Of a stretch of DNA of 6,088 nt, positions 301 to 6,088 are shown one piece after another; within the stretch, counting starts at the first letter, position 1; every line of letters starts with the position of its first letter. The stretch lies in IMG/VR virus record IMGVR_UViG_3300014972_000058; one strand, given 5' to 3'. Made by a program: the position numbers and the translations under genes. The notes beneath the pieces were generated by a model that worked only from the letters and a program-made list of their open reading frames with translations, did not search any database and was not told the DNA's origin. The stretch comes from a virus. Taxonomy: Duplodnaviria > Heunggongvirae > Uroviricota > Caudoviricetes.

Positions 301-389
301 ACTTTTATTCACTTACGTTTCGCCAGTTCGCAGGATTTCGTGTTATCCGCCCGCGTGGCCATGCCTTATTTTTCAGCAAAATATTCTGC

Positions 390-923
390 TTATCTGTCGA
401 TTCCCCAGCACGCCAGCGCGCTCTCCTGGTCACGACGGGATACCTGACCATAACAGTTATTTGAGCGGACACGGCAGTCTCTGCCACCGTCCTTAATCCA
501 CCAGCGAATCGCCTCACACGCTCCCCTGCGATCACCTGCATTAATTCGTTTATAAAACGTCGACGGGAAACACTTACCGGGACCAATGTTGTACGGACAG
601 AATGACGCGATCCCCGCTTTCTGGGGTTCACTCAATGGCACTCTGATGTTTTTCTCCACCCATGCCAGCGCCTTATCACGCTCAATGGCGTTAACCCGGT
701 CGCATTTTTCCTTCGACAACTTCATGCCCGGAACGACAGGTTTGCCATCCACCAGGATGGCACCGCGGCAGATGGTCCAGATACCCGCGCCATCACGGTA
801 TGCCGTGGTGTGGTTACCTTCCTTTTCATCCAGAAACTGGTCGAGAATGTCAGGCGCAGGCGCACCAGCGGCAATCAGCGCCAGAACGGCAGCCGACAGG
901 CCGTATCTGATTTTTGCGTTCAT
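390..923 (-). CDS. R: SAR endolysin, phage 21 R / T4-lysozyme-like (GH24) muramidase
   Basis: 177-aa ORF with a Gly/Ala-rich weakly hydrophobic N-terminus (YGLSAAVLALIAAGAPA) typical of signal-anchor-release domains, then a lysozyme core with acidic and Thr residues (EKEGNHTTAYRDGAGIWT) and a …RINAGD.RGAC… block resembling P21 R-type lysozymes. Paired with a pinholin upstream. No obvious Shine-Dalgarno before the ATG at 923. Confidence 0.88.
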   Translation of the reverse strand: MNAKIRYGLSAAVLALIAAGAPAPDILDQFLDEKEGNHTTAYRDGAGIWTICRGAILVDGKPVVPGMKLSKEKCDRVNAIERDKALAWVEKNIRVPLSEPQKAGIASFCPYNIGPGKCFPSTFYKRINAGDRRGACEAIRWWIKDGGRDCRVRSNNCYGQVSRRDQESALACWGIDR

Positions 924-1028
924 GGATATTTATCAGGATTTATCGGTTTCTGAGCCCTAGATATGTTTATCAGTTCCAGCCTGTTGCCTCAGGCTGCTAA
1001 CAGGTCAATACAATCATGAGGATTATTT

Positions 1029-1301
1029 ATGGACAATAACACCATTTCTCTACAGGAGTTGCTCGACAGCATTTCCAGGCTTCGGGAAGACGTGAATACC
1101 CTTACCGTCGCCTTCTCATATCTGGCATTCTCAATTCCAAGGGAACAGATGCAATCAACGCTGGCATCAATCCAGTTTGAATCATGCAATCCCAAATGGT
1201 CTCAGGAACAACAAGACTCTTTCAGGCGGCTTGCTGTATTACTGGATGAAAAATATGCTGGTAAAATTACCATTTCGGCGGACTCTTCAGAGAACCCGTA
1301 A
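1029..1301 (+). CDS. Hypothetical 90-aa protein, antisense to the late operon and convergent with the YdfR-like gene (35-bp 3' overlap)
   Basis: GAGGA lies 7 nt upstream of the ATG at 1029. Predicted soluble, helix-rich product (MDNNTISLQELLDSISRLREDVNTLTVAFSYLAF…); no family recognised. A possible promoter TTGCCT(984-989)-N19-TACAAT(1009-1014) overlaps a 7-bp hairpin at 977-996. The competing minus-strand ORF 989-1195 has no RBS and odd composition. Confidence 0.45.
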   Translation: MDNNTISLQELLDSISRLREDVNTLTVAFSYLAFSIPREQMQSTLASIQFESCNPKWSQEQQDSFRRLAVLLDEKYAGKITISADSSENP

Positions 1302-1611
1302 TTATTCCCGGTAGTTTTCCTCTGTAGGTTATCAACACATCCTGCGCCTCTAAAATTACGGGGCGCTTTTCCGGCGACTGCTCATCCCCTTCACATAACC
1401 CGGCAGCAACATCCAGGAAGACCTGTCTGATGCTCCTTCTGGCTGCTGCCTCATAAAACTCCAGCGAGGCACCTTCAACACGGTCCAGCGAGATGTCCAG
1501 GTCAAAAATTTCACCGTCAAAGCGTTTTTTGTCCCGTAACGCTAAAGTTACCGTAACTTTATTCTCAAAATTGCGGATCCCTTTCACAATCAGTTCATAG
1601 TTTTGAGTCAT
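1267..1611 (-). CDS. ydfR: YdfR-like (DUF1327-type) small lambdoid prophage protein between holin and endolysin; C-terminal third diverged
   Basis: 114-aa ORF whose first ~70 residues (MTQNYELIVKGIRNFENKVTVTLALRDKKRFDGEIFDLDISLDRVEGASLEFYEAAARRSIRQVFLDVA…) resemble my recollection of E. coli Qin-prophage YdfR, which occupies the same holin-lysozyme position. GGGGAGAG RBS; ATG at 1611 sits 5 nt after the holin stop. Family assignment is from memory, not a search. Confidence 0.6.
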   Translation of the reverse strand: MTQNYELIVKGIRNFENKVTVTLALRDKKRFDGEIFDLDISLDRVEGASLEFYEAAARRSIRQVFLDVAAGLCEGDEQSPEKRPVILEAQDVLITYRGKLPGIITGSLKSPPKW

Positions 1612-1615
1612 TGAA

Positions 1616-1831
1616 TTACTCTCCCCGTGCAGCCTTACGACGGTCCTCTCTGATTTTGAAATACAGGTTAGTCAGATATGTCAGCAGCCCAAACAGCAGA
1701 CTCCCCAGCACGCCTATTGCCGCCCACTGAGACGGGGAAACCCTGTCCAGCAACTGCAGGAACCAGTAGCCCGTTCCCACCGCTGACGTGGTGTATGACA
1801 CACCTGTTGTGATTTTTTCCATCTGGTACAT
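1616..1831 (-). CDS. S: Class II pinholin (phage 21 S21-like) with dual-start motif (Met1 at 1831, Met4 at 1822)
   Basis: From the internal Met of the 97-aa track ORF: [71 protein letters not shown] (71 aa), closely matching the recalled S21 pinholin. GGAG lies 7 nt upstream of the ATG at 1831. The extension to 1909 has no homology and overlaps a terminator. Confidence 0.88.
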
Positions 1832-1865
1832 ACCCCGTCTCCCGTTATCCGGAAGCTGACAACAA

Positions 1866-1897
1866 TAAAAAAAGCCACCAGTTAAGTACTGATGGCT
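1866..1897 (-). terminator. Rho-independent terminator downstream of nanS-p, upstream of the holin
   Basis: On the minus-strand RNA a 9-bp stem (AGCCAUCAG / CUGGUGGCU, one G-U pair) with a 7-nt loop is followed by seven U. On the plus strand the same stem has a C-A mismatch and no U-tract, so it is minus-strand specific. Confidence 0.6.
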
Positions 1898-1981
1898 CTG
1901 ATAACTCATGCAGGCATCTCAGACGACCCACTGACACTACCGGTGAGTTTAACGATACCTTCCATTTGGCTGGCTCACTTT

Positions 1982-3835
1982 TTATGATGATGCCGGTGCA
2001 TTTATCTCCAGCACCAGACTTTCTATCTCAACGCCATACGCTGCATTTTTGGTAATATCCGTCAGCGTCAGCGCATTCAGCCCCAGTGTCAGACTGTCTT
2101 TTATGACCTGGAATGCCGGGCCAGCCACTCCATTCAGTTTCGGAGTAACCGTGGCACTGCCGGCGGTGAACACCAGCTCCAGCGTCTGCCAGTCGTTACT
2201 GTAATTCCCGAACTCGCCCAACTTTGTGTTTCCTGCTTTCTTGTGATGCATCAGATTCAGTTTGCCGTCTGTGGTCTGGGTGAAGAACGACATCAGGAAC
2301 GGGTTACCAGTCCCGGTCATCGCCACGACGTCAGGTAACGCTACATCGGTATACAGATAAATTCCCAGACCGAACTGGTTGTTGGTCAGTGCGCCTGACA
2401 GTCGAAACTTACAGCTCAGTCTGCCACCCCGTGTCAGCAGGGAGACTGCGTCATCCACCGGGCGCGTCAGGGACCAGGCTTTATTGCTCTGCTTGGTGAT
2501 CTTAAATACACCATCTGACAACTGAATTCCGCCATTCTTAATGCTCCAGCCCTGCGCAGCAGCGTCTCCGGCTGTCGGCAACAGGGAGATTGTGCGTATG
2601 GATGCATCTTCAGACGGCCCCGATGGCGTGTCGCCGCCGGGCGAGGGTTTGATTTCCGGTGCCTTACCACTAATGAAGGCTAAGGTGCGACCGGCTACGT
2701 TCAGAATAGCAGTTGCCATACGATCGGGAATAATGCCACGACGCGCCCATGAGCTGAAATGCGTCGGGCGATTTGATGATACCCAGTTTTTGTTCGTTCG
2801 GGATGCCGAACCGTAATAACCAGACCCGGCAATATCAGGATCTTCTGACGGGTTGTTTGTCGGTGTATTAACTCCGCTACCATCGGTCATAAAGGGAACA
2901 AAATAAATCTGCTGGGATTCTTTACCTTTATATGCACCATATACCACTTCATATTGCGTACCGTGTTCTTGTTTCCACGCGTATGTCGTGTCGCCACAAA
3001 TCCAGGGGACTGATGCCGGACTTCCACCGTGACACTGCGCCGCCAGCCCGGCAAGGTCAGCACGGAACTGCTGTACCATTGCAAGAAATGCTGCTGGCTG
3101 CTGGGCGTAACTGGCATTCGTCATATCGAATTCCCCCTGCATCCAGCATATCGCCAGCAAAACGTTTTTCGGGTTTTTCTGCAATGCTGCCTTCGTGCGG
3201 AAAAGCAGATCCTGATATAACGGCTTACCCACTCCCCAGCGAGCCGAATCCTGACTGGCTCCCGTGGACTCGCTGAATGTCCCCTCCGTGCCCTGGGTGA
3301 ATGCCGAACCACCACGACAGCATGGTACCAGCAGGATCCCCGCATTATTAGGGATATACGGAAGCAGTTTTTTGGCAATATGTAAGCCCTGTCCGACACA
3401 GCCGTACTGCCCTTTGCTCAGGTCAGCCCGGGGATGGTTAATCGTACTCATATCCTGAACATCATGCAGACAATGGTCAGCAGGAATGATGTCGTTAAAT
3501 ACGCATACTTCACCACCGGGAGTCACTGTGTTACGACGGGCCAGTTGCTTAATGCGCGGATGGGGCGCATCGTATGAATCCGGAAGCGGAAGCCCTTCAC
3601 CGTAAGCCATGGCATTGGATTGCCCGGCCAGTACGATGACGTAGTACCACTCCGGCTCAGTTGCACCACTGACGACCACATCACCTTCTGCTGCAATCGC
3701 CTGCATCAGGGTATAAGGGGTTATGGCCACCGGACTACCAAACGGCTGCCAGCCCTCCTTCAGTTTTTGTGTCAGTCGTTTCGCAAGGTCTGACGGCGAT
3801 GCCGCCCTGACCACGTCATAGTGTTTAAATGCCAT
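1982..3835 (-). CDS. nanS: Prophage NanS-p-type 9-O-acetyl-sialate esterase (DUF1737 N-terminus + SASA/SGNH esterase domain + C-terminal domain)
   Basis: 617-aa ORF; N-terminus MAFKHYDVVRAASPSDLAKRL… matches the DUF1737 start of Stx-phage NanS-p as I recall it; GQSN esterase motif at VIVLAGQSNAMAYGEG; GGAGG-type RBS before the ATG at 3835. Position (after the tRNAs, before S) matches the yjhS/nanS-p slot of Stx phages. Confidence 0.82.
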   Translation of the reverse strand: MAFKHYDVVRAASPSDLAKRLTQKLKEGWQPFGSPVAITPYTLMQAIAAEGDVVVSGATEPEWYYVIVLAGQSNAMAYGEGLPLPDSYDAPHPRIKQLARRNTVTPGGEVCVFNDIIPADHCLHDVQDMSTINHPRADLSKGQYGCVGQGLHIAKKLLPYIPNNAGILLVPCCRGGSAFTQGTEGTFSESTGASQDSARWGVGKPLYQDLLFRTKAALQKNPKNVLLAICWMQGEFDMTNASYAQQPAAFLAMVQQFRADLAGLAAQCHGGSPASVPWICGDTTYAWKQEHGTQYEVVYGAYKGKESQQIYFVPFMTDGSGVNTPTNNPSEDPDIAGSGYYGSASRTNKNWVSSNRPTHFSSWARRGIIPDRMATAILNVAGRTLAFISGKAPEIKPSPGGDTPSGPSEDASIRTISLLPTAGDAAAQGWSIKNGGIQLSDGVFKITKQSNKAWSLTRPVDDAVSLLTRGGRLSCKFRLSGALTNNQFGLGIYLYTDVALPDVVAMTGTGNPFLMSFFTQTTDGKLNLMHHKKAGNTKLGEFGNYSNDWQTLELVFTAGSATVTPKLNGVAGPAFQVIKDSLTLGLNALTLTDITKNAAYGVEIESLVLEINAPASS

Positions 3836-4028
3836 GAATCCTCCCGGGCGGGATAATGTTGTGAGTCAGATAAGGAGCAGGCTGAAGTCCGGAAGTTACA
3901 GGACAATGGCAGAAGGGAGACTACAGCCCGCAATTCGAAAAAGACCGCGCAGTTGCGCAGAGTGATTACTATGGGGTATTATTCGCCAGCTGAAATATTA
4001 CTTCACGTTTTATTGTTTATTCCTTGCC

Positions 4029-4057
4029 GCCCGCGTCTCCCAGCGCGGGCTTTTTTT
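4029..4057 (+). terminator. Plus-strand rho-independent terminator with no plus-strand gene upstream
   Basis: GCCCGCG (4029-4035) pairs with CGCGGGC (4044-4050) around an 8-nt loop, followed by T7 (4051-4057). On the minus strand the stem is preceded by the A-run, so it is plus-strand specific. Confidence 0.55.
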
Positions 4058-4061
4058 GTCC

Positions 4062-4330
4062 ATAAGAAAGCCCCTCCGGAGAGGGGCTAAAGCCGCGTAT
4101 CTGTATCATCATGCACATGGTGCCGGGTGCCTCCCGGTGAGTTCAGCCCGGTGCCACTAAACCCGCGTCATTCTCGTTTTGATAATCAGAGATTATACCG
4201 TCACCAGTCGCCCCTCCGCTCAGGGGGATTCACCATGCGAAATTTTTTTAACAAATGCCCAGTCTGACAGGCAACTGTCAACTTACTGAATTGTGAGCAA
4301 CATAGCATTTAACGGGGAACCTGTTTTCTG
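4062..4330 (-). repeat. Copy 1 of a diverged ~240-bp direct repeat unit; candidate structured sRNA gene ending in a hairpin plus U-rich tract on the minus strand
   Basis: Shares with copy 2, in the same order: the perfect hairpin AGCCCCTC-CGGA-GAGGGGCT (4069-4088), CATGGTGCCGGGTGCCTCCCGGTGA.TTCAG (4116-4146), GCCCCTCCGC.CAGGGGGATTCACCATGC (4210-4238), TTTTAACAAA and CTGAATTGTGAG (4286-4297). Spacers between blocks differ in sequence and length. On the minus strand the hairpin is followed by UUCUUAUG. Confidence 0.5.
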
Positions 4331-4361
4331 CAGTAAAAAGGCCCACCGGAGCGGATGGGCC
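4331..4361 (-). terminator. Minus-strand intrinsic terminator immediately upstream (in transcription order) of repeat copy 1
   Basis: GGCCCA (4340-4345) pairs with TGGGCC (4356-4361) around a 10-nt loop; on the minus strand it is followed by UUUUUACUG (plus-strand A5 at 4335-4339). Confidence 0.5.
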
Positions 4362-4547
4362 TGGAAGGATAGCGGTCATGTGATGCCGGTTTCCCGGTAA
4401 CTCAGCACCGGTATCTGAGTCAACGTTTTCTCTACTGGGTCATTTCCGATACGCCCTGCCTGCTGACAGGCTTTCATCACATCTGAAAATATAGCACCCT
4501 GACTGATACTGTAGTACCTAAGGTTCCAGAAACTGTGATGTATCCGG

Positions 4548-4770
4548 CACAGAAAAGCCCCTCCGGAGAGGGGCTGGAGAGTGGCGCTATGTGCCATTGC
4601 ATGGTGCCGGGTGCCTCCCGGTGAATTCAGTACCAGCACCTGAATCCGCGATTATCCCATATACCTACTCGCTGATTGCCCCTCCGCACAGGGGGATTCA
4701 CCATGCCAGTTTCTTTTAACAAACTCCCCGCAAACCAGACAACAGTCAACCGCCTGAATTGTGAGACATT
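4548..4770 (-). repeat. Copy 2 of the diverged ~240-bp direct repeat unit; candidate structured sRNA gene with 3' terminator hairpin on the minus strand
   Basis: Same conserved blocks as copy 1, offset 468-487 bp: hairpin 4556-4575, block 4600-4630, block 4678-4706, CTGAATTGTGAG at 4754-4765. On the minus strand the hairpin is followed by UUUCUGUG. Lies between the tRNA-operon terminator and the 4331-4361 terminator. Confidence 0.5.
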
Positions 4771-4809: not shown

Positions 4810-4886
4810 TGGCGCGTTGTACTGGATTCGAACCAGTGACCGATTGCTTAGAAGGCAATTGCTCTGTCCGGCTGAGCTAACAACGC
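4810..4886 (-). tRNA. argO: tRNA-Arg (anticodon UCU), canonical cloverleaf with encoded CCA
   Basis: Reverse-complement GCGTTGT-TA-GCTC…GAGC-A-ATTGC-CTTCTAA-GCAAT-CGGTC-ACTGG-TTCGAAT-CCAGT-ACAACGC-G-CCA: all stems perfectly paired, anticodon TCT. Gene name assigned only by position in the ileZ-argN-argO order recalled for Stx phages. Confidence 0.85.
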
Positions 4887-4899
4887 AGGATACAGATAA

Positions 4900-4976
4900 T
4901 GGACCGCCTTCGGGGACCCGAACTCCGCGCAACCAGCTTCGAAAGCTGGCGCTCTTTCCTGATGAGCTAATGGCGG
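4900..4976 (-). tRNA. argN: tRNA-Arg-like (anticodon UCG by my fold), imperfect stems; may be functional or a decaying copy
   Basis: Reverse-complement CCGCCAT-TA-GCTC…GAGC-G-CCAGC-TTTCGAA-GCTGG-TTGCG-CGGAG-TTCGGGT-CCCCG-AAGGCGG-T-CCA. D and anticodon stems perfect; one A-A mismatch in the acceptor stem, one A-C mismatch in the T stem, and G at the usual A58 position. Name by position only. Confidence 0.6.
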
Positions 4977-4983
4977 TATGTGA

Positions 4984-5059
4984 TGGTGGCCCTTGCTGGA
5001 TTTGAACCAGCGACCTGGCGATTATGAGTCGCTCGCTCTCACCACTGAGCTAAAGGGCC
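4984..5059 (-). tRNA. ileZ: tRNA-Ile2 (anticodon CAU, lysidine-type, reads AUA)
   Basis: Reverse-complement GGCCCTTTAGCTCAGTGGTGAGAGCGAGCGACTCATAATCGCCAGGTCGCTGGTTCAAATCCAGCAAGGGCCACCA: canonical cloverleaf, CAT anticodon, and much closer to my recollection of E. coli ileX than to elongator tRNA-Met. Confidence 0.8.
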
Positions 5060-5108: not shown

Positions 5109-6088
5109 TCAAACGATTAAATCCTGAACTTCCCTGACTGTCTGCTCAAAACGTCCGGTCTCCAGTTCAACGCCAATCGCACGACGCCCGAGCGCCAGTG
5201 TCACTTTTACCGTTGAACCTGAGCCCATAAAAAAATCTGCAACCAGGTCACCCGGACGACTGCTTGCGCTGATTATCTGCTGCAGCATTTCTGCCGGTTT
5301 TTCGCACGGATGTTTCCCGGGATAGAACTGCACCGGTTTATGTGTCCACACATCCGTGTACGGCACCTGCGCCGTCACACCAAAATACCGCCGCAGATGC
5401 TTATATTCACTCTGCAGCTCCACATACTGCCGGTTCAGTGACGTATACGTATCCACCAGCTGGTGGTGGGGCTTTTCCAGTTCACCGCGCTGATGTTTCT
5501 CTTCTGCCACCCGGGCAAACAGCGACTGTAATTTCAGATAATCGCTTTCGTTCGGTAGCTGCCACTGACTGGCACTGAACCAGTGCGACACCATGTTTTT
5601 CTTTCCTGTGGCATCTGCAATCTGTTTTGCCGTTATCCCCAGGGCAGCGCGCGCATCACGAAAGTAAGAAATCAGCGGGGCCATCACATGCTGTTTCAGT
5701 GCACTGCCCTTCGCCGCATACCCGGCATCTTTCGGACGATACGGCCCCTGATAATGTTCCGCGAACAGAATGCGCTCTGTGGCGGGGAAATACGCCCGCA
5801 GGCTTTCCTTGTTGCATCCGTTCCAGCGTCCGGACGGCTTCGCCCAGATAATATGGTTCAGCACACTGAAGCGTTCACGCATCATGATTTCGATATCAGA
5901 TGCCAGGCGATGACCACAGAACAGGTAAAGACTTCCGACAGGTTTCAGCACCCGCCAGAACTGCGCCAGACACTGGTCCAGCCACTTCAGGTAATCATCG
6001 TCGCCCTTCCACTGGTTATCCCAGCCCTCAGGCTTCACTTTAAAGTACGGCGGGGGCGGGTGGCCCTGGAAAACCGAACGGTTGTTAC
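5109..6088 (-). CDS. DNA methyltransferase, beta-class amino-MTase (N6-adenine or N4-cytosine; PF01555-like), 5' end outside the window
   Basis: The in-frame minus-strand reading upstream of the track's GTG start at 6038 stays open to the window edge and encodes …VFQGHPPPPYFKVKPEGW…, a (D/N/S)PPY-type catalytic motif IV. The FxGxG SAM-binding motif (DFFMGSGST) lies near the C-terminus, giving the beta-class motif order. Stop at 5109-5111. Confidence 0.82.
   Translation of the reverse strand, partial: NNRSVFQGHPPPPYFKVKPEGWDNQWKGDDDYLKWLDQCLAQFWRVLKPVGSLYLFCGHRLASDIEIMMRERFSVLNHIIWAKPSGRWNGCNKESLRAYFPATERILFAEHYQGPYRPKDAGYAAKGSALKQHVMAPLISYFRDARAALGITAKQIADATGKKNMVSHWFSASQWQLPNESDYLKLQSLFARVAEEKHQRGELEKPHHQLVDTYTSLNRQYVELQSEYKHLRRYFGVTAQVPYTDVWTHKPVQFYPGKHPCEKPAEMLQQIISASSRPGDLVADFFMGSGSTVKVTLALGRRAIGVELETGRFEQTVREVQDLIV

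Follow-up and report, generated by a model that had tools for sequence, protein, structure and literature searches.

A backward-facing 90-codon gene in the lysis cassette of a lambdoid prophage: a probable accessory gene of the Ybl58/phrog_2411 family

The 6,088-nucleotide stretch of viral DNA analyzed here (IMG/VR record IMGVR_UViG_3300014972_000058, Caudoviricetes; hereafter, the window) is the late region of a lambdoid Escherichia coli prophage that is transcribed on the minus strand. Its lysis cassette holds an open reading frame (ORF) that points the other way, a 90-codon gene on the plus strand (1029-1301) that begins with ATG, has the Shine-Dalgarno motif GAGGA (1019-1023) 5 nt ahead of that codon, and shares a convergent 3' overlap of 35 nt (1267-1301) with a ydfR-like late gene (1267-1611, minus strand; DUF1327 match with E 1.7e-42). 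An earlier note on this DNA had described the frame, its GAGGA, the overlap, and the 343-nt gap between the ydfR-like stop (1267) and the start of the endolysin gene (923), and all of these coordinates hold on re-reading the sequence. The locus raises the question of whether a frame lying antisense to a late operon is a gene at all and, if so, whether it serves lysis or is carried there for other reasons. We find that it is a protein-coding gene present in some related cassettes and missing from others. On balance we favor the reading, as a probable though by no means secure one, that it is an accessory gene (moron) of the phrog_2411/Ybl58 family, lying on the opposite strand of a Q-dependent late operon, which would be expressed from the prophage and silenced by late transcription and whose product would bind another protein.

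A plus-strand gene under selection for its protein

Comparison with relatives indicates that the 90-codon ORF is a genuine protein-coding gene. The same 273-nt ORF is annotated in vB_EcoS-783R2 (99.6% DNA identity), Chlobot (91%), and phiSTEC1575-Stx2k (83%), in each case with the 35-nt overlap, and the Prokaryotic Genome Annotation Pipeline (PGAP) calls the gene in RefSeq genomes. A word-indexed search returned protein relatives in 62 clusters, down to 59% identity, from Escherichia, Shigella, E. albertii, and Citrobacter, and an exhaustive profile search of 1.84 billion representatives returned only 21 clusters, reaching ∼25% identity. The distant proteins among these also match phrog_2411, the PHROG profile that the window protein matches, and their homology is accordingly real. 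The frame stays intact over the whole range of identities (100% to ∼25%), in Escherichia, Shigella, Citrobacter, Serratia, Sodalis, and others. The ratio of nonsynonymous to synonymous substitution rates (dN/dS) of the plus frame across five independent DNA lineages is 0.19 to 0.41 overall and 0.19 to 0.37 outside the ydfR overlap, with dS up to ∼1.3, and variable sites are in excess at third codon positions (14/13/24 at positions 1/2/3 among the lysis-cassette copies, 37/34/63 overall). In a six-frame control on seven DNA copies, only the plus frame 1029-1301 was open in every copy; the earlier note had named a lack of conservation in related prophages as grounds for giving up the gene, and the opposite was found.

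A further copy lies adjacent to the iha gene, where the 90-codon gene is the sole intact ORF; what is left on either side of it, from the 5' end of the endolysin gene and the 3' end of ydfR, has decayed. Because these remnants are retained, the copy is a relic of a lysis cassette. The iha-adjacent form was found on at least 1000 contigs, and the comparison indicates that selection on the protein is independent of the lysis context. These data bear directly on the suggestion that the ORF is a non-functional frame, arisen by chance or decaying in inserted junk DNA, with automatic annotations. Such a suggestion can draw on annotations that read just "hypothetical protein", on several frameshifted variants, and on a strict scan that yields neither promoter nor terminator. 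It is already contradicted by the comparative data, however, given a frame kept intact across genera at dN/dS values of 0.2 to 0.4 with dS up to ∼1.3, the clustering of variable sites at third codon positions, the survival of the ORF in the relic after its flanking genes had decayed, and a confident AlphaFold2 (AF2) model of the product (predicted local distance difference test, pLDDT, of 81.7). We regard a non-functional frame as very improbable.

Still more remote is the possibility, raised in the earlier note, that the ORF at 989-1195 on the minus strand (68 aa, TTG start) is the one translated, being read together with the late operon. Late transcription would read this ORF in the sense orientation, and it shows a low dN/dS (0.09-0.24), but low values are expected where an antisense frame has its wobble positions in common with a sense frame under constraint. 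One internal stop interrupts the ORF in phiSTEC1575 and three do so in the iha copy, while in Chlobot and REL606 it ends at an earlier stop; it has no family match. Since it is interrupted or shortened in relatives, it is not conserved as a reading frame, and we reject it as a real gene. For annotation, the consequence is that the plus-strand call is correct and that the minus-strand ORF 989-1195 is not a gene.

The product is an acidic, soluble protein of 10.2 kDa (isoelectric point 4.5; grand average of hydropathy, -0.43) with predicted helices at residues 8-35, 38-51, and 59-77 followed by a disordered tail. Over its full length it matches phrog_2411 (E 1.1e-58, residues 1-90 on profile positions 1-90 of 90), and three distant relatives (P0065, P0072, and P0077) match the same profile with E values of 1e-19 to 6e-9. 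In UniRef the exact 90-aa protein is named Ybl58. It is a member of that very family, which is small and enterobacterial, and shows no difference from it. The earlier statement that the product belongs to no recognizable family is therefore true of Pfam and NCBIfam, where it has no significant match, and of the defense models of PADLOC-DB 2.0, where nothing matches at E <= 0.1, and it fails for PHROGs and UniRef. A match to "anti-silencing protein Mip" was set aside; it had an E value of 0.037 and scored 13.7 bits where the cut-off is 50. No membrane segment was found, the maximum Kyte-Doolittle mean over 19 residues being 0.75, and no holin family was matched. A literature search by name (ybl58) and by four WP_ accessions returned no papers. 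Existing catalogues already list both gene and family, as hypothetical, under the names Ybl58 and phrog_2411, and the architecture is of a known kind.

Optional cargo and its relatives at other sites

The site of the gene, with ydfR on one side and the endolysin gene on the other, is a variable slot. An insert of ∼290 bp (978-1271) is absent or replaced in related cassettes: alignment and BLAST of window positions 301-2000 against fetched loci showed that homology to records lacking the insert is lost at 967-977 and regained at 1272-1276. The right boundary falls within the final ydfR codons, such that the last two codons and the stop come from the insert, and the insert is essentially the 90-codon gene with its ribosome-binding site. 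Its guanine-plus-cytosine (GC) content is 44.2%, as compared with 55.2% for the endolysin gene, 48.2% for ydfR, and 53.2% for the holin gene. In the Qin prophage of K-12, ydfR and rrrQ overlap by 4 nt with no insert, and in vB_EcoS-733R4 the two flanks are separated by a 63-nt gap, again with no insert, although ydfR there is 97% identical to that of the window. Among 5426 complete E. coli genomes, 1207 (∼22%, BL21 and REL606 included, the latter at locus ECB_RS07100) carry the module, at 1338 places; the ydfR core occurs at 8614 places in 4349 complete E. coli genomes, so that about one ydfR locus in six carries the gene.

The same slot can hold other sequence. In Stx2 phage 86 it contains the longer C-terminus of a 268-aa YdfR together with a plus-strand ORF (803-1117 of locus L009), which we considered as a homologue of the 90-codon gene and rejected, as it belongs to phrog_1853. 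In phage 2H10 the slot holds a YdfR extension only, giving a 183-aa YdfR. The DUF1327 core ends at one junction (near window position 1275) in the window, phage 86, and phage 2H10. The junction of ydfR with the endolysin gene is a cargo slot in which different backward-facing genes are exchanged.

Morons typically have a base composition distinct from that of their surroundings. The 90-codon gene differs from its neighbors in this respect, and it is present in some related phages and absent from others, between genes that are otherwise adjacent. The comparative evidence supports its assignment as an optional cargo gene, in agreement with the moron option of the earlier note, which fits the pattern of presence and absence, the lower GC content, and the occurrence of relatives in many contexts. 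An autonomous, selected, mobile small gene that lands repeatedly backwards in late operons behaves as a moron would.

The contexts of the relatives are diverse. In phiSTEC1575-Stx2k one neighbor of the gene is still ydfR, and the other side holds two holin genes and an M15 peptidase gene. A scan of genome representatives with an alignment of the family gave only 2 loci. In Citrobacter meridianamericanus, the gene lies between a gene for a 238-aa non-DUF1327 protein, which it overlaps by 14 nt, and a Phage_holin_3_1/CHAP lysis module. The distant member P0066 lies antisense between M and L, two tail genes of the lambda type, and P0065, also antisense, adjoins DUF1441/terminase genes. Copies with ∼72% DNA identity are found beside the iha adhesin gene in an island flanked by insertion sequences and beside an autotransporter gene on a plasmid. 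A core chromosomal branch, unnamed throughout, occupies the position between dinI and bssS (rne-pyrC-dinI-X-bssS-solA) in Serratia, Chania, Gibbsiella, Chimaeribacter, Sodalis, and Acerihabitans (for example, 4001-4279 of locus L011, 1463-1741 of L012, and 193-468 of L015); we know of no annotated gene at this position in K-12. The family is thus found in a tail operon, a terminase region, an island, a plasmid, and the Serratia core chromosome and is not confined to lysis cassettes.

These locations bear on the proposal that the gene regulates lysis, which the earlier note had put forward as a "timing device": the protein, or an antisense transcript over the ydfR 3' end and the endolysin leader, would tune the holin, YdfR, or endolysin output of its own phage. 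In favor of this proposal, the gene sits within the lysis cassette and shares 35 nt with ydfR, and the E. coli and Citrobacter phage copies mostly adjoin lysis genes. In addition, the insert parts ydfR from the endolysin gene (R), two genes that are translationally coupled in K-12 Qin, and antisense transcription could in principle lower the R message. Nevertheless, relatives occur at the sites listed above without lysis genes, which makes a role in lysis timing unlikely. The same ydfR allele (97% identity) works without the insert, and in phiSTEC1575 and Citrobacter the neighboring lysis genes are of other types. The product lacks a membrane segment (the hydropathy maximum of 0.75 is unlike that of holins and antiholins), and conservation at the protein level argues against a role of the RNA only. 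Taken together, we consider regulation of lysis quite improbable, and the timing device is not upheld.

The convergent partner of the gene varies as well. The partners are YdfR (DUF1327), the 238-aa non-DUF1327 protein, and a 71-aa ORF, which are mutually unrelated, and the chromosomal Serratia branch has no convergent partner gene. A conserved two-gene convergent module, composed of the 90-codon gene and a YdfR-like partner, was considered and rejected, as L013, L019, and L023 have partner ORFs that show no relation among themselves or to DUF1327. Short convergent overlaps recur among opposite-strand morons of late operons, at 7 nt in L019 (3001-3267 on the plus strand with 3261-3476 on the minus strand), 14 nt in L023, 35 nt in the window, and 47 nt for Tab/gp30 of Pseudomonas phage JBD26 (in L105, 1583-1834 on the minus strand with 1378-1629 on the plus strand), again with unrelated partners. 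This recurrence may reflect compaction or shared termination.

Expression signals and comparison with known antisense genes

As the earlier note had reasoned, late transcription must traverse the 90-codon gene to reach the endolysin gene: a strict scan found no minus-strand terminator-like site within 924-1611, and in a gap free of such a site late transcription can reach the endolysin gene. An Rfam scan found no known RNA within 924-1301. The same note was right that the endolysin gene has no obvious ribosome-binding site. Its leader (924-977, minus strand) carries no strong Shine-Dalgarno sequence, and the minus-strand sequence ahead of the start codon, ...AAATCCTGATAAATATCC-ATG, contains no AGGAGG-like element. 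This leader is common to cassettes with and without the insert, so the poor ribosome-binding site is a trait of the endolysin type and is not linked to the insert.

Candidate signals for plus-strand expression were sought with a relaxed weight-matrix scan that used hexamer frequencies of the classical sigma-70 compilations. It returned a candidate weak sigma-70 promoter, TTGCCT-19 nt-TACAAT (984-1014, plus strand), which is among the two best sites of the whole window. The candidate -10 hexamer is conserved as TACAAT, or as TATAAT in the iha relic, and the GAGGA is kept in Chlobot, phiSTEC1575, and REL606 and appears as GAGGAG in the relic. About 45 nt past the stop of the gene, inside the ydfR coding sequence, lies a candidate weak intrinsic terminator on the plus strand (GCGCCUC-9 nt-GGGGCGC followed by UUUU; 1344-1372). 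Its hairpin (1344-1366) has a predicted stability of -12.3 kcal/mol on the plus strand; the minus-strand form is weaker (-9.6) and lacks a U-run. A perfect 7-bp stem is preserved in the iha relic (L007).

A 7-bp inverted repeat, CAGCCTG-TTGCCT-CAGGCTG (977-996), is located upstream of the gene with the candidate -35 hexamer as its loop. Chlobot and phiSTEC1575 keep a shorter version of the stem, and in the window the hairpin folds no better than shuffled sequences (z -1.4). Distant members of the family in unrelated contexts have a hairpin at the same place, ∼50 to 80 nt ahead of the start codon, with differing stem sequences (CGCCAGTG/CACTGGCG; CGACTGTG/CACAGTCG; and CGTCAGCG/CGCTGGTG, with G-U pairs on the plus strand); the sites are at ∼175-225 of L013, ∼2925-2950 of L017, ∼2932-2955 of L019, and ∼78-100 of L014. 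The upstream hairpin of these distant members could be a conserved leader structure or an operator.

In the reading that we favor, the 90-codon gene would be transcribed on its own from the prophage by way of the weak candidate promoter just upstream, and the hairpin inside ydfR would possibly terminate the plus-strand transcript. Upon induction, the far stronger convergent late transcription that crosses the gene toward the endolysin gene would turn it off. The target of the product would most likely be a second protein, belonging either to the host or to a phage entering the cell, and the product would not act in lysis of its own phage.

Several known systems share this layout, and in two that have been studied by experiment, Tab and Tai, expression of the antisense gene occurs in the prophage. 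Tab (gp31) of Pseudomonas phage JBD26 comes from an opposite-strand gene with a promoter of its own and was classed as a moron expressed from the prophage (PMC10884400), and by the coordinates of the JBD26 record it overlaps its late-operon neighbor by 47 nt. Like the 90-codon gene, tab is small (83 aa versus 90 aa), has no known family, lies on the opposite strand of a late operon, and overlaps its neighbor convergently at the 3' end (47 versus 35 nt). Unlike it, tab is sited between terminase genes rather than in a lysis cassette. In phage phi80, TaiEcA interrupts the Q-dependent late operon and its expression drops when Q is expressed (PMC11364771); in Staphylococcus aureus phage 80alpha, noncontiguous operons make the two expression states of Tha and Ith mutually exclusive (PMC11087260). 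Tai/Ati and Tha/Ith likewise have an antisense gene nested in an operon, which in phi80 is also the Q-dependent late operon, but tagged TaiEcA runs at 26.1 kDa and Tha belongs to the HEPN RNases, so that neither is a 10-kDa helical protein like that of the window. The noncontiguous-operon layout itself is present here, with holin, ydfR, and endolysin genes on the minus strand around a plus-strand gene and no terminator-like site between them. The bor gene (next to Rz) and an IraM-like anti-adaptor gene (upstream of the holin gene), both annotated in opposite-strand orientation in relatives, are comparable in being single, optional genes at module junctions of the late region. They encode a lipoprotein and an RssB anti-adaptor, respectively, neither of which matches the 90-aa protein in Pfam or NCBIfam, and they lie beside the lysis cassette whereas the 90-codon gene lies inside it.

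The resemblance to Tab leads to a further explanation, in which the gene is the defense half of a defense/counter-defense pair, as in Tab/anti-Tab or Tai/Ati, and ydfR is a counter-defense expressed only in the lytic state. The geometry is like that of Tab/gp30, with a small opposite-strand gene overlapping a small late gene at its 3' end, and the family recurs as an opposite-strand insert in late operons; moreover, P0065 lies by terminase genes, which matches the usual site of Tai homologues upstream of the packaging module (PMC11364771). Homology to Tab was rejected (hhalign probability 0.1%), as was any relation of YdfR to anti-Tab (gp30), for which BLASTP gave no significant alignment, and no PADLOC model was matched. 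Tab has a dedicated, essential partner in anti-Tab, whereas the convergent partners of the 90-codon gene differ between contexts and are unrelated, so that a conserved cognate partner in the late operon is not seen. The disparity in number, with ydfR about six times as frequent as the insert, and the partnerless chromosomal Serratia branch also argue against pairing. Tab is a member of a defense pair, while a defense role for the 90-codon gene would be conjectural, and we consider the paired arrangement unlikely.

Our favored reading of a prophage-expressed moron also has points that count against it. A strict consensus scan finds neither a promoter upstream of the gene nor a terminator downstream, which leaves the "possible own promoter" of the earlier note as a weak candidate returned by the relaxed scan only. 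The 19-nt spacer of that candidate is long, and the predicted start at ∼1021 would give almost no leader and lose most of the Shine-Dalgarno sequence. The candidate terminator has a 9-nt loop and four U only, and it is weaker in phiSTEC1575. Four E. coli variants (P0030, P0037, P0049, and P0061) are frameshifted into the +1 frame (the 45-aa ORF at 1177-1314 of the window) to yield 94-aa chimeras, and the existence of such copies suggests that the gene is dispensable in some lineages; the variants, in clusters of 1 to 8 members, are pseudogenes or sequencing errors. Comparison of folds and families beyond phrog_2411/Ybl58 returned nothing and hence no hint of function, and the vertically inherited Serratia chromosomal branch argues against a purely phage-versus-phage role. 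Finally, the reading is built on sequence comparison.

Neighboring features and wider meaning

The remaining features of the window all lie on the minus strand unless stated otherwise. Upstream in the direction of late transcription are a DNA methylase gene (5109-6038) and, between it and the STnc100 copies, a cluster of three tRNA genes (4810-5059) for Arg-TCT, Arg-TCG, and a CAT-anticodon tRNA, which ARAGORN calls Met and whose counterpart in a related prophage is called Ile by PGAP. Two full copies of the STnc100 small RNA (RF02076) are present at 4058-4267 and 4545-4735, scoring 165 and 136 bits against a gathering score of 47, and a third, degenerate copy gives a weak match at 4333-4506. 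The copies are arranged in tandem downstream of the tRNA genes, at the site where Stx phages carry stx, and direct repeats of 88 and 31 nt mark two STnc100 units. Next comes a gene for a 617-aa SASA/DUF1737 esterase (1982-3835). Between this gene and the start of the holin gene, a terminator-like hairpin of 12 pairs with a T-run (1871-1899) would require Q antitermination for late transcription to get past.

The lysis cassette begins with a class II (P21 S-type) holin gene (1616-1831), followed by ydfR and, as the downstream neighbor of the 90-codon gene in the late operon, by the endolysin gene (390-923; Phage_lysozyme with a hydrophobic N-terminus). Just past the endolysin stop, a GC-rich hairpin CCCCG...CGGGG (267-300), with A-runs and T-runs on both strands, resembles a bidirectional terminator. 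Small ORFs follow, one of which (93-191) has a hydrophobic segment, and Rz does not follow directly; in vB_EcoS-783R2 it is found further on.

The K-12 YdfR protein was reported in a 2026 paper to bind the catalytic N-terminal half of RNase E and to copurify with RNA (PMC13232886). If this binding holds, ydfR, the "spare" gene that separates holin from endolysin, may serve some function related to RNA. A link from YdfR and RNase E to the 90-aa protein is worth testing, although the variable partner argues against obligate pairing.

The 90-codon gene is common, being found in ∼22% of complete E. coli genomes, B strains included, as well as in Shigella, E. albertii, E. ruysiae, and Citrobacter, and it has no assigned function. 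Were it expressed from prophages and shut off by late transcription, a very accessible host would offer a further example of the recently described design that ties accessory genes to the decision between lysogeny and lysis by antisense nesting in a late operon. We suggest tentatively, as a possibility rather than an expectation, that Ybl58/phrog_2411 is an effector carried by prophages, which would either exclude other phages or modulate a stress pathway of the host, and that its antisense placement in late operons is a selected switch that is on in lysogeny and off in lysis. If so, the "noncontiguous operon" logic of Tab, Tai, and Tha would also cover a new protein family, one that about a fifth of E. 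coli genomes carry, BL21 and REL606 among them.

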